DNA from: Escherichia coli
GTDB lineage: Bacteria > Pseudomonadota > Gammaproteobacteria > Enterobacterales > Enterobacteriaceae
NCBI RefSeq assembly: GCF_024502345.1
Contig: NZ_JALDNN010000003.1
DNA: 64,000 nt
Strand: one strand, 5' to 3'
This document shows positions 1 to 9,000 of the stretch, one piece after another; within the stretch, counting starts at the first letter, position 1; every line of letters begins with the position of its first letter. Made by a program: the position numbers.

Positions 1-3000
1 ACTCCCATAAGGCCTCAGCCAAAGCTGCTTTTGCTCTCATATATGGACGTGTTTCGACAAATCCCCAGAAACGTCCTGCGAACTCCTGAAAATCCTCGCC
101 AAGTGCAATGCTGGCTGCGTACAAAGCAGTCTCCAGCTTCCCGATTTTTGACTCAGGAGGTTCTTGAGATATCTCGCAGTAGAATGAGTATGCGTCAGCA
201 CAGAGCGGGGATTTCTTGATAGCTTTTCTGATGAGTTTCAGCACAACTTCCAGGTCATCATTTTCCCAGGCATCGAACATGAACTCCTGAGCCGCAACCA
301 GATCTAGATGTAATTGCTCAGAGCTGACAGCAGTTTTATACAAATCAACGCGCTTTGTAGTCGGGAATTTAATCATCTCAAGTATCCTTTTGGGGACTCA
401 CTGTTCCGGTACTTTGCAGCACTGATGGTCGATTCTATCGCTTTGAACTTGCCACAAACAAGCTCGGGTCTGCCAGAACGGGATTGATAGCCCGGAGCTG
501 TTCCTGGATGCGCACCTGAGCCTTACGGCTGGGCGATTTTTTGCTTCGTTCCCGTTTGCCTTCGCTTTCCCGCTCATCCTGTTTTACCTGAGCCAGTCGG
601 AGTACAGTCCCGAGACGTTTGTTATCAACAATCTGCCCCTGGTCGACACAGGCCAGCTTATCAAATGCCTGGCACTTAAGGCTCCGGTGCCCATAGAGGA
701 AGGCGAGGGTGCCATCGGGATAATCCAGTACTTTAATTTTTTCACCGGCAAGACGGCTATTTTCTTCTGTGGTGTCCATGAGATAAAGGATCTTATCGTA
801 CTGGAAGGTCAGTGATTTCGACACGGTACGAACATCATGCCAGGCAAAGATGTCTCTTAATTCATCGGGGCTTTCCTGCACCGGACGATGCAAATCTTTG
901 GGGAACTTAGCCGGTCGTGAAAACCGGCTGTTAAAGTCAGCGATGAAAGTGGCAAGCCAGGCATTTGCGGCCTCAATGCCGGTTATACCTTCCAGACGCA
1001 TTTCTTTGATCAGCCGATCCTGAAGTGTCTGATTCGCACGTTCCACGCGGCCTTTAGCTTCAGAGCTGTTGGCACAAATAAGCTCGATTGCCAGGTCATA
1101 AAGCACACGTCCGAACTGGGTAACGGTGGTATTGCGTTTCTCCGGACCACTGACGCGAAATATTGCGTGTTTGTCACTGTACAGCGATACCGGCTTCCCA
1201 TGCTGCTCGATGTATTCCCGGGTTGCCAGCATGTAGTCAAAGGCTGTTTCTGACTCGCTGAACCGCAAATGCATCAGACGCCCGGTGGCATCATCGATAA
1301 AGACCAGCAGGCAGCATTTTGGCGCACGGCCTTCAAACCAGTCATGGTGGGAGCCGTCGATCTGGATAAGTTCACCCAGACAATCACGCCGATGTCGGGG
1401 TTGATAAACCCGTGACTTACGGCGAGCATGCGGGACCCAGAGTCCGTCAGACGTCATCCAGTTGCGGACGGTCTCGATTGAAAGCCGGATATTATGGCGC
1501 TCTCTGAGTTTTTCTGCGGCCAGTGTGGGCCCAAAGTCACTGTAGTTTTCACGTATCAGCGTGAGTACTCGTAGTTTGAGAGATTCGGTCAACCGGCGGT
1601 TGCTGGGCTGGCCGCGTTTGCGGCTGACAAGTCCTTCAGCACCAGAAACTCGGTAACGATTGATAAGTCGTTGCGCCTGACGTTCTGAAATGCCAAGCTG
1701 TGATGCTGCATCACGACGGCGTAGACGCTTTTCACAAACTGCCTGTATCACCGGTAGGCGGTGGATCTCTTTATCTGACATGGTCACCAACATGCGTTGA
1801 GTCCCTTAGAATTGCATTCAGTTTAGCTTACTCTAAGGTGACGTTTCTATCTGGATAAAAAGTGACATTACTAAATGGTTCTAACAATCTTGGTGCGCAT
1901 AACAAAGATTATGTTAAATATGGTGGGTTTGCTCTTAAGTTCATGAGTCCCTCTCTTTCAGGAACTTACCGATGAATCAGTCAGTTGCCAAAGTTTAGTT
2001 GTGGACTTACGATGACTTCATAACACAAAAATTACGGGGCATCCGCTAAGTTCATGGCATATACCATCTTACATTTATCGAGGAACAACCAGAGAACTCA
2101 TCTCATAGTTGATGATGTGACTACCCTACCGGTCATGTTCGCCACAATTTATGGAATGAATGAACTGAGCAAGAAAAGCCTAGGGACTCAAGAAAACATT
2201 TTGTGTTCGCTGCGTTTCTTTTACGTCTATTACTATAAGAAGCATAAACAAACATTTGACTACGATTTCTATCGGTCTGGCTACAATATCTCCTGTTTTA
2301 TCAGGGAGCTTGATGGCTTCTTTACTTATCTGCTCGGGAAGCAGCACCTGAGTGACGAGACCGACATAATCTCTAACGGGTTTTTACATTCGGCACTCTC
2401 CAGAACCAACAAGTCCACCTATGGTAACCACGTCAGAAACGTTGGCCGATTCCTTAAGTATCTCAACTATAGATATATGAATCTGGCATACCAAGATATG
2501 TCACCTACTGAAGCTCACCAGATTAACCAGGCGAACCATAGAGATCTCGCTGCCAGAATTAAGGTCTTCAATAGAGTTGAAGTATCCAGGAACGAACCAG
2601 CTCACCGATACAAAAGTATCACCAGCCAGCAAAGTATCGAACTAACGAACATGTTAATCCCCTCCACTCCTGAATTTTCAGATATCGAGACCGGCGAACT
2701 ATTCACGGCCGTGGTTAATCCCCAAAACCCATTCGATTCAGGATTTCAACAATACCGTAACTACCTTATTCACCGGTTAATGTTTAACTATGGCTTACGT
2801 GTTGGTGAAGTTCAATTGTTGATGAAGGATTGCGTGGGGCCAACCCTTCCAGACTCACGAGGTAACATTCGTTTCATCCTGATTGTACAAAATCTACCAG
2901 ATGATGTAGTTGACCCAAGGAAACAACAACCTTCACTCAAGACTGAGCATTCACAGCGACAAATCGAACTAACCGAAGATGACTTCATTATGTTTACCAT

Positions 3001-6000: not shown

Positions 6001-9000
6001 TAAGCGAGAAATTACGGATAAAGATAAACGTCAGCACGCAATAGATCAAGACTGGCCTACTTACAGGTTGGGTATTGAGTATCTTGGTGCAAAAAAGGCT
6101 GGATGGCGGATCCATTGGCTGGCGCCAAGCACTTATTCTGTCGTTGAGATGATTTATAAATCTGTTCGAGAATTGACCTCTGGGTTCCGTAAAACGATTC
6201 AGGGCTTCAGAGATTCTAATTTCACTAATATGCTCCCAGGTAAGATCGCTGATTTTCCTGATGAATGGATTGAGCAAAATTATCTTGAAGACATCATGTT
6301 TAGTGGTTCTGGTGGCTCCAGGAATGATCTTGGAAAGAGTATTCGGAATTCCATTGGCTTTGTTGAATAAATCAGATTTCGGGTAAGTCTCCCCCGTAGC
6401 GGGTTGTGTTTTCAGGCAATACGCACGCTTTCAGGCATACCTGCTTTCGTCATTTTGTTCAGCGCTCGTACCAGGGCCATAGCCTCTGCAACCTGACCAT
6501 CGTAGTCACGCAGTGTCAGTGAACCCCCGAACAGCTGTTTTACCCGGTACATCGCCGTTTCCGCTATCGAGCGACGGTTGTAATCTGTTGTCCATTTCCA
6601 CCGCGCATTACTCCCGGTCATTCGCTGATTAGCCACTGCACGGTTACGGTCTGCATATTCACCGGGCCAGTAACCCGCACCTTTTCGGGGAGGGATAAGC
6701 GCGCTGATTTTCTTACGCCGCAGTTCATCGTGACATAGCCGGGTATCGTAAGCGCCATCGGCGGCGGCTGACCTGATTTTCCGGTGGGTTTGCCGGATTA
6801 ACCCGGGGAAGGCCTCTGAGTCCGTAACGTTGTTCAGCGACAGGTCAGCGCAGATGATTTCATGTGTTTTACTGTCAACGGCGAGATGCAGCTTACGCCA
6901 GATACGGCGGCGTTCCTGGCCATGCTTTTTGACTTTCCACTCGCCTTCACCGAAGACCTTCAGCCCGGTGGAATCAATTACCAGGTGTGCGATTTCACCC
7001 CGGGTGGGCGTTTTGAAACTGACATTAACCGACTTTGCCCGCCTGCTGACACAGCTGTAATCCGGGCAGCGTAGCGGAACGTTCATCAGAGAAAAAATGG
7101 AATCAATAAAGCCCTGCGCAGCGCGCAGGGTCAGCCTGAATACGCGTTTAATGACCAGCACAGTCGTGATGGCAAGGTCAGAATAGCGCTGAGGTCTGCC
7201 TCGTGAAGAAGGTGTTGCTGACTCATACCAGGCCTGAATAGCTTCATCATCCAGCCAGAAAGTTATGGAGCCACGGTTGATGAGGGCTTTATTGTAGGTG
7301 GGCCAGTTGGTGATTTTGAACTTTTGCTTTGCCACGGAACGGTCTGCGTTGTCGGGAAGATACGTGATCTGATCCTTCAACTCAGCAAAAGTTCGATTTA
7401 TTCAACAAAGCCGATTTTGGAATTTCCCCTACCATAATCTGGTAGCTACACATTCACTCGCAGAGATTAATCGCTTTAACATAATTAGTGCCAGCACTGA
7501 GTCCTTTAAAATTATAAATCCATGTTCTATCCATAACGTCGTGCCATTGCTCCTTTCGGTGTTCACTGCAAACGGGAGCAGGAATTCCGTTGCAGTTCTT
7601 CGGCCGCCTGCTGTTGCAGCACGACCATCACTCTGCTGAGCATTGTCAGCGCCTGGGAAGGGGAACCGCCAAACGTCAATTTGATTTCGTTGGTGGTGTG
7701 GTGCTGTTCCAGGTCGAGAATATTTACTTCCACGTCTGCGCCCTTCTCATCCTTAGCCGTACAATGAATGCTGACCCGGGTCACCGGGTCCTTAACTGTC
7801 TGCAATGGTTTCTTCGTGCTGATGTTGATTGCGGTATTCTTCATTGCCCTGTTTCTCCTTGACCAGTGGTGGTAACCGACCCTACCGGGTGGCGGGGTCA
7901 GTCAGGAAATCATGCCTGGCCCTTGTTCTGCTTTTCAGCATGTTTACGCAGGTACTGCGTCAGATCGCCGTGAGCTTCACAAATGGCATTCATCTCGTCA
8001 TTGGTCAGCACCAGAGTGTAAGTATCGTCGCTGAGGTTCTTAGCGGCCCGTTGTTTAGCTTCTTCCGCAATACGCGAAAACAGCGGGATTGCCGTGTCCG
8101 CAATCGTCGTCACGGTCTTTTTGTTCAGTACGCTGGAGACCGACACAGCTTTAGGCTCTGGCGTTTTGACCGGGTCTTTCATCTGCGGTGCCGGGGTCCT
8201 TTCCGGGGTCGGCTCCGGGTTAGTGCCCGCACTCCCGTCCACCAGCTGCGGTGGGGTGGTCTCATCGTTAGTACCTTCGCCGGACGTTTGTTCAGTCACG
8301 GTGGTTTCCGGGGGGGTCGCATTTGCGTCCGGCACGATGGCTGCTTTCGGCTTCATCGCTGCATCAATGTTGCCAGCTTTGACGAATTTCAGGGTTTTGG
8401 CCGTCGCCTTACCATAAACATCAATGGCTTTGGTGATGTTGTTGACCGCTTCATCGCCGCTGTAAAGGTATTCATCCAGCGCGACATACATACTCACTTC
8501 ACCCTTCACCAACATGGCCTGGAGGGCTTCAGGCAGATCCAGGACGCGAACCATCTGACGCAGGTGCTGTTCGGTTTTACCGCGACGCTTCGCCAGTTCA
8601 GCGAACGTTTTGGGTTCTTCCGCGTCTTCAACCATCCGTTTGATGGAGAGCGCCTCAGCTACGACAGACAGAGCCAGATTTGAGTTACCGTCCAGCGTAA
8701 ACTGCTCGGCACTGGCGCGGCTACCGCGAAACTCCTCGCATCGAATTAACGTGATCAATTCACGCCCTTCATCTGCCAGCTCGATGTTTGCCATCGCGAC
8801 GGCACGGATACGGCATGCTCCCTGGCGCAGGACCGGACGGCCATTCAGAATCTGTACGACAATAGCTTGTACGCTTAAAGGATCGATCTTGTAGGACTCT
8901 TTCAGGCTGTTCAGGTGGGCTACCACGTCAGGTAATGAGTAGTAACTCTCCCCAATGCCAGCAGTACGGGTGTTAAACCCCTCTTCCTCTTCGACCACTG

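Follow-up and report, generated by a model that had tools for sequence, protein, structure and literature searches.

A probable GInt-type recombination module beside a plasmid dif-like site in Escherichia coli

We analyzed three overlapping genes for tyrosine-recombinase-type proteins in a 64,000-nucleotide stretch of Escherichia coli DNA (contig NZ_JALDNN010000003.1 of assembly GCF_024502345.1), hereafter the window. Positions 1920-6355 of the window very probably represent the left, recombination-module end of a GInt-type island (Tn6571 family, with a ginABCD-like operon) from a clade that inserts at the outer XerD-arm edge of dif and dif-like sites, here a plasmid site at 1892-1919. This explanation draws on homology, the anatomy of the attachment (att) sites, presence/absence polymorphism, and targeting across taxa. 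Two points are unusual: the clade targets dif, and it is present on conjugative plasmids. The copy in the window is, judged from its sequence, a dead remnant of a known element family in which two recombinase open reading frames (ORFs) are still intact.

The recombinase genes and the element they belong to

The three ORFs are real and share one orientation, as seen in an ORF listing of the window, and their order is kept in more than 20 genomes of other species, which rules out chance ORFs. The overlap between gene 1 and gene 2 measures 44 nt, and the ATGA at 5207-5210 belongs to both gene 2 and gene 3; as read in the window, the ORF of gene 3 spans 5207-6370 and encodes 387 amino acids (aa). 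The GC content over 2000-6250 is 0.37-0.44, against 0.50-0.55 on either side.

For the family assignment, we built profiles g1 to g4, for the three genes and for a fourth that follows them in chromosomal copies, from relatives in other species. We compared these by hhalign with the reference GInt of E. coli Sakai, ECs_3512-3509 (ginA-ginB-ginC being ECs_3512-3510), as listed in Idola et al. 2023 (PMC10214605). The g1 profile matched Sakai GinA with 99.4% probability (E 2.7e-21) over 374 columns that include the N-terminal domain, and g3 matched Sakai GinC with 98.5% probability (E 3.4e-15) over 409 columns. The match of g2 to Sakai GinB covered the catalytic domain and was weaker than these two (90.4%, E 1.4e-6). 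Genes 1 to 3 are thus colinear with Sakai ginA-ginB-ginC. A phmmer search with g3 over 1.84 billion representatives returned 184 proteins in all, the weaker of which were clear relatives of Sakai GinC (e.g., P0238, 7.7e-49). GInts are defined by four genes, ginABCD, each of which is needed for excision and integration in Pseudomonas (Bardaji 2017, PMC5385486). They are called the Tn6571 family by Hochhauser et al. 2023 (PMC10121019), who labeled the islands at E. coli hotspot #20, between hipA and ydeT, as "GInt" and found this hotspot occupied in 62 of 783 genomes. The colinear matches, together with this label, place the cassette in a named family, as a member of a divergent clade whose proteins are longer than those of classical GInts.

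The conserved residues agreed with a recombinase identity. Gene 1 matched a PHROG integrase family (E 3.5e-9) and, by profile, XerA in PDB (E 3.4e-6); R249, K296, R392, W441, and Y451 were invariant and H393 near-invariant among 18 homologues. For gene 2, most homologues have a precomputed PF00589 match, and the only NCBIfam result was NF041502 "integrase_1" at E 2.6e-24, below the family cutoff. Among 28 homologues of gene 2, the invariant residues were R264, K296, F-R379-H380-x-x-G383-H384, and Y411, as well as C470, C477, C485, and C488 in the tail. The motif F-R-H-x-x-G-H replaces the expected H-x-x-R-H, and Sakai GinB likewise has FRYTLGS. A PDB sequence-profile search with g3 returned no match, and Pfam searches on the g3 and g4 families gave nothing useful. 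The full-length gene 3 protein, modeled with AlphaFold2 (AF2) from 80 homologues, reached a mean predicted local distance difference test (pLDDT) score of 87.4, and the top 48 PDB fold matches of this model were all tyrosine recombinases (Tn1549 Int, IntI, Cre, XerA, XerH, lambda Int, and XerD). Across the g3/GinC superfamily (80 sequences, including canonical GinC relatives), R252, K296, H509, R512, Y544, and four C-terminal Cys were invariant. Genes 1 to 3 are therefore predicted to encode tyrosine-recombinase-type proteins. GinC has been described as lacking the catalytic RHRY motif (Idola 2023) and as lacking the first Arg (Bardaji 2017). In our alignments, HxxG in place of HxxR occurs in the GinB-type protein, whereas the GinC-type protein keeps the R/K/H/R/Y set.

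These results bear on an earlier reading of the same DNA made without database searches (the sequence-only reading). It had described three overlapping, co-oriented, AT-rich genes between two different insertion sequences (ISs), as the ORF listing and GC content confirm. It had also proposed tyrosine-recombinase-type proteins with long N-terminal parts, in agreement with the profiles, the g3 fold, and the conserved residues, and a Cys-rich tail in gene 2, now seen as four invariant Cys. Its claim of a catalytic signature in all three genes holds for genes 1 and 2, the latter with HxxG, while gene 3 as it stands in the window has the box-I Arg and the Lys only.

We then turn to the intact element. 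IncHI-type plasmids of E. coli and Citrobacter carry the same cassette with 99.9% identity (megablast against plasmids), and most of it is present in 26 plasmid records. Gene 3 encodes 671 aa on the IncHI-type plasmids and is truncated there as well, given that the E. coli chromosomal copies found in complete genomes encode 845 aa. The left end of this element type was present in 161 of 5,426 complete E. coli genomes. In the chromosomal copies, gene 3 is followed by an overlapping fourth gene of 167 aa. In E. coli CD45, a 33-kb island lies between hipA and yneL, with the four-gene operon at its head and ~27 kb of cargo. Its right end is defined, and by eye the far end appears rich in AT. The cargo of this island includes HamA with a DEAD/DEAH helicase (Hachiman-type), an ABC-three-component system protein, an AAA ATPase, and transporters. 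Cargo varies among copies: a Raoultella plasmid carries resistance to chromate and nickel/cobalt, and an E. coli plasmid carries betT. The sequence-only reading had suspected a decayed mobile element and proposed looking for an intact trio in other genomes; the CD45 island bears out the suspicion, and the intact form has four genes rather than three.

Among the 22 loci with a complete g3, 21 have a gene of 143-199 aa after it, which frequently overlaps g3. The AF2 model of gene 4 is all-helical (pLDDT 77), and a fold search with it gave no significant match. Its resemblance to GinD is confined to size, position, and helical architecture. As reconstructed from sequence, the intact element would consist of the left end, a GinA-like protein of 507 aa, a GinB-like protein of 556 aa, a GinC-like protein of 845 aa, a small helical protein of 167 aa, the cargo, and the right end.

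Several GInt features were recovered, namely GinA-, GinB-, and GinC-type genes, a tripartite island (in CD45, not in the window copy), and short direct repeats. Like GInts, these elements have their four-gene operon at one end, then cargo, and then a short far end without coding sequence; they integrate site-specifically with a short direct repeat, often carry defense genes, and have no transfer genes. They differ in protein size (507/556/845 aa, against 401/437/543 aa in Sakai), in that their GinC-type proteins have 785-863 aa with a C-terminal four-Cys domain and a coiled-coil extension, and in a gene 4 that is not detectably similar to GinD. The target differs too: here it is the XerD arm of dif, whereas the described GInt targets are an ABC-transporter gene, ssb, and a ribonucleotide-reductase gene (PMC5385486). 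Finally, the element described here resides on conjugative plasmids, whereas, according to a 2024 GInt preprint, plasmid association of GInts had not been shown until then.

The window copy retains only a part of this structure. Its match to the chromosomal island covers 1891-6356, with no other island DNA within the 64 kb, and the DNA to the right of the IS903-like element (7910-9115 on the minus strand and downstream) bears no relation to the island. The copy lacks codons 384-845 of gene 3 as well as gene 4, all cargo, and the right end, and with gene 3 cut and these parts lost, the copy is immobile. Removal of the catalytic part of gene 3 by IS903, as the sequence-only reading had it, is thus upheld, with codons 1-383 of 845 remaining. 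The inverted repeat of the IS903-like element, GGCTTTGTTGAATAAATC, starts at 6356, and the 9 bp that flank the element are unlike each other (AATTCCATT vs GATTTTGGA). The absence of a target duplication means that an adjacent deletion or recombination between ISs took place rather than a simple insertion. A Raoultella plasmid (L042, 17325-20920) carries an IS5-family insertion in gene 3 at about codon 660, and the gene 3 homology in IncHI plasmids stops at this same point (L001, 10618). Together with the IS903-like element of the window, at codon 383 (6355) and with no target duplication, these positions fit successive IS903-mediated adjacent deletions from one ancestral insertion.

Table 1. 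Features of the window around the GInt-type cassette
Feature	Position	Strand	Description
ISLad2 (IS1202 family, ISNCY)	435-1886	-	Transposase 435-1793; name from the RefSeq annotation of an identical plasmid region
dif-like Xer site	1892-1919	+	Occupied target, attL side; XerC arm GGTGCGCATAA, centre CAAAGA, XerD arm TTATGTTAAAT
GTTAAAT, 7-bp core	1913-1919	+	Common to attB, attL, attR, and attP-type junctions; putative crossover region
Left end of the element, non-coding	1920-2053	+	Homology with chromosomal islands begins here
Gene 1	2054-3577	+	GinA-type tyrosine recombinase (predicted), 507 aa, intact
Gene 2	3534-5210	+	GinB-type recombinase (predicted), 558 aa (556 aa in RefSeq, start 6 nt later), intact; C-terminal four-Cys domain
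Gene 3	5207-6355	+	GinC-type (predicted); codons 1-383 of 845 left; HxxRH, Tyr, and C-terminal four-Cys domain deleted
IS903-like IS5-family element	6356-7412	-	1057 bp; transposase 6412-7380; terminal repeats read directly

Insertion beside the XerD arm of dif

The target was defined by comparing an empty and an occupied chromosome. In E. coli K-12, the empty site is dif itself, GGTGCGCATAATGTATATTATGTTAAAT (GGTGCGCATAA-TGTATA-TTATGTTAAAT). The CD45 island starts directly past the XerD arm of this site, and only GTTAAAT is repeated at its far end; in BLAST, the flanks share an overlap of 11 bp, and 7 bp of it (GTTAAAT) form an exact repeat.

The dif-like site next to the cassette is the sole match in the window, and 100 shuffles gave 0 matches. 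It was missed by the sequence-only reading, which described most of the cassette correctly and overlooked this most informative feature. The identical 28-mer occurs in 1082 plasmid records, mostly of Klebsiella, and one Klebsiella plasmid that we inspected has it with no element behind it. The left end of the element contains NNNTTCAT repeats at 1937-1944, 2014-2021, and 2048-2055, the last overlapping the start codon of gene 1, in keeping with an earlier suggestion of subterminal repeats in 1953-2053, as well as a weak sigma-70-like match at 1985-2013. A TTCA[TC] motif lies 18 nt past the XerD arm in 14 of the 15 loci examined, the intervening 17 nt being variable. In the window element and several relatives, TTCAT occurs again at about +95 and +129.

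We scanned one genome per species with the gene 2 family as the query, which yielded 32 loci. In 22 of them, the left end is immediately preceded by a complete dif or dif-like site, and these loci come from Enterobacterales, Vibrio, Aeromonas, Psychrobacter, Moraxella, Shewanella, and Marinobacter. Three more loci show the XerD arm alone (L012), a tandem junction (L009), or a contig edge within the core (L011). A more distant metagenomic relative likewise sits at a dif-like site. Across 26 aligned junctions, the XerD arm was identical in 23 and differed in its last base only in the other 3. The XerC arm, by contrast, goes with the host species, and the centre is variable on plasmids.

The site also accepts more than one island. 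In E. coli 2018-05-5CC, the order is dif, a distant four-gene module (466/516/788/144 aa) with its cargo, GTTAAAT, a window-type element, GTTAAAT, and yneL. This array (L041, NZ_AP027886 626000-675000) holds two GInt-type islands of unrelated clades at dif. The inner island has decayed through IS1 and IS3, and the space between the islands contains corA together with a helicase/sigma-like gene pair. A Citrobacter contig and plasmid NZ_CP024236 carry a junction of right end, GTTAAAT, and left end, which is the form expected for attP. Such tandem junctions show that dif is regenerated at attL and used again. Many large E. coli plasmids (e.g., NZ_CP101015 and NZ_CP033094) keep just the first 37-40 bp of the left end, which suggests either a recurrent truncation point or the relic of a second tandem copy, as in NZ_CP024236.

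Plasmid NZ_CP081775 (L001) is 99.9% identical to the window over 6.3 kb. Nine clustered differences separate window positions 1887-1908 from L001 positions 5320-5341 (ATCTTGGTGCGCATAACAAAGA vs GACTTAGTGCGCATAAGATGGA), and all of them fall within the 4-bp flank of the IS, the beginning of the XerC arm, and the 6-bp centre. The flanks common to both sequences argue against an independent insertion; a site swap by Xer-mediated or double-crossover exchange is possible.

On the XerC side, ISLad2 ends at about 1886, which leaves 5 bp up to the XerC arm of the dif-like site, or 4 bp when T1891 is taken as the first base of the arm. No inverted repeats of this ISLad2 copy were detected in a search of 150-1900, so that its left boundary is not fixed. 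Targeting of dif and plasmid dif (pdif) sites is a described behavior of the IS1202 family, and ISs of its ISAjo2 group place themselves 3-5 bp away from the XerC arm, with this very 28-mer among their targets (PMC10132070). The ISAjo2 group thus resembles the GInt clade in using Xer sites as a landmark, and it differs in consisting of DDE transposons that insert on the opposite side of the site. In several cases, an IS1202-family IS 4-5 bp from the XerC arm and a GInt directly past the XerD arm make up one dif-like site with two elements: the window (1881-1919) and L001 (5310-5360), both with ISLad2, L002 (~5990-6040) with an unnamed ISNCY-family IS, and L003 (~5990-6040) with ISKpn21. We met no mention in the literature of such co-occupation of one dif-like site by an IS1202-family IS and a GInt.

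Weighing the assignment and its alternatives

Some observations speak against a dif-targeting GInt clade, or narrow it. Pfam searches on the three window proteins gave sub-threshold Phage_integrase matches for gene 1 (E 0.059) and gene 2 (E 0.19) and none for gene 3, the g2 match to GinB is modest, and the comparison of gene 4 with GinD was not significant, either as a single sequence or as a profile (hhalign 2%). In the species-wide scan, six of the 32 loci (L013, L014, L020, L021, L031, and L036) have upstream sequence with no recognizable dif; L039 begins inside gene 1, and L030 and L037 were left out of the dif check. The right end is defined from E. coli copies only. Moreover, no dif lies upstream of the Sakai GInt, and the targets known for classical GInts are others, which makes dif targeting a property of the clade of the window element.

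In the established Xer mechanism, strand exchange by XerC and XerD takes place where the 6-bp dif centre has its borders. Elements termed IMEX, such as CTXphi, VGJphi, TLCphi, and the gonococcal genetic island, encode no recombinase and integrate at dif through the host XerCD, with recombination within the dif core. An IMEX-like origin, in which host XerC/XerD would integrate the island and its three proteins would be accessory or serve another purpose, could explain the strict adjacency to dif and dif-like sites, and the tandem arrays at dif do recall CTX-type IMEX; the use of dif as the integration locus and the maintenance of a functional dif are further likenesses. However, the element type of the window has three recombinase-type genes of its own, with invariant R-K-HxxR-Y sets kept in g1 and g3, and each homologous gin gene is essential for integration and excision (PMC5385486). 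The junction also lies at the outer end of the XerD arm rather than at the borders of the 6-bp centre, attR consists of GTTAAAT alone, and neither attR nor the attP-type junction has Xer arms. A purely Xer-driven mechanism is therefore unlikely.

The other alternatives concern the identity of the element. The sequence-only reading had proposed an undescribed recombinase-trio family, and proteins longer than those of classical GInts, weak Pfam matches, and a gene 4 with no GinD match would suit a family unrelated to any named one. The colinear profile matches to GinA, GinB, and GinC, the continuous similarity network from g3 to GinC, and the independent labeling of the same E. coli locus, hipA-ydeT, as GInt make this very improbable. 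For three of the four genes, the GinA, GinB, and GinC matches rule a new family out. The sequence-only reading had itself stated that an already named family with these protein lengths would refute it: the family is indeed named, and its classical members have shorter proteins.

SEs, or strand-biased circularizing integrative elements, are gammaproteobacterial and carry the module intA-tfp-intB-srap (Idola et al. 2023); gene 2 would then correspond to Tfp and gene 3 to a large IntB. The four-gene module of ~6.3 kb is close to the smallest SE (6,353 bp), the hosts lean to Vibrio, Aeromonas, and Alteromonadales, and gene 2 has HxxG in place of HxxR. SEs also share the left-end position of a four-gene module, gammaproteobacterial hosts, the lack of transfer genes, and a short core repeat, with a 6-bp spacer against 7 bp in the window element. 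Yet BLASTP against the proteins of the reference SE of pSC138 (NC_006856), taken from the list of Idola 2023, returned nothing below E 0.05. By hhalign, g3 reached 1.1% against IntB and 0.1% against Tfp, and g4 reached 1.4% against Srap, where the same profiles reach 90-99% against GInt proteins. SEs thus differ in showing no sequence similarity in the comparison with this reference SE and in having the homologous genes in another order, and we consider an SE even less probable than a new family. SE identity was rejected on the lack of similarity to the pSC138 SE proteins, including the marker proteins Tfp and Srap. The pSC138 SE itself (L046, NC_006856 101499-107308) lies in a plasmid umuDC region, with umuD directly upstream of intA.

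Least probable of all is a recombinase-in-trio (RIT) or Tn554-type element, although both have several adjacent tyrosine recombinases in one operon and the small fourth protein recalls TnpC, the small third protein of Tn554. According to Idola 2023, Tn554 has two recombinases and TnpC, with no counterpart of the third recombinase-fold protein and with Staphylococcus and Enterococcus hosts, and RIT elements have three proteins and no fourth; these descriptions set both apart in gene number, size, and host. The NCBIfam search gave no TnpA/TnpB-type match either. The resemblance to RIT and Tn554 elements noted in the sequence-only reading is architectural only.

In the open-access literature, including the GInt and SE papers, we found no description of dif targeting by GInts or by three-recombinase elements, and no report of this GInt clade on conjugative plasmids.

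Proposed mechanism and implications

For the preferred reading, a GInt-type island inserted at the XerD-arm edge, we propose that the element's own tyrosine-recombinase-type proteins and its small protein would synapse a circular attP, ...AAACCCAGAATA GTTAAAT ATGGTGGGTTT..., with the GTTAAAT that ends the XerD arm. Strand exchange would take place inside the 7-bp GTTAAAT, so that dif would stay intact at attL and GTTAAAT alone would be duplicated at attR. An intact dif at attL implies that Xer function is preserved and that the site can be reused, giving rise to tandem arrays. Excision as a circle is compatible with the tandem attP-type junctions of NZ_CP024236. In the window, the IS903-like element has taken away the catalytic half of gene 3 along with gene 4, all cargo, and the right end. 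We infer catalysis, circular excision, the cleaving protein, and any role of XerD from these data. The target may be recognized by its DNA sequence alone, or XerD bound to its arm may be involved and may help to recruit the complex.

A broader proposal, which we regard as evenly balanced between true and false, is that one entire clade of GInt-type islands, widespread in Gammaproteobacteria and equipped with its own three-recombinase machinery, attaches at the XerD arm of dif or of a plasmid dif-like site, joining at the GTTAAAT just outside the Xer core. Under this proposal, dif would remain functional, islands would stack in tandem, and islands could hop to conjugative plasmids that carry Xer sites.

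The assignment has practical and biological consequences. Trios annotated as "integrase / integrase / hypothetical protein" on IncHI-type and related plasmids can now be named as IS-truncated GInt modules and are not active plasmid integrases. Elements that borrow XerCD are known to land at dif. The present family brings recombinases of its own and uses the XerD-arm flank, which raises the question of how a heteromeric tyrosine-recombinase complex reads a site normally occupied by XerD. Targeting of dif explains the E. coli defense hotspot #20 (hipA-ydeT) and predicts tandem accretion at the terminus, and plasmid Xer sites offer a route from chromosome to plasmid. If the broader proposal is true, the terminus would be a self-renewing landing pad for defense and resistance cargo, shared with the IS1202-family ISs on the XerC side.

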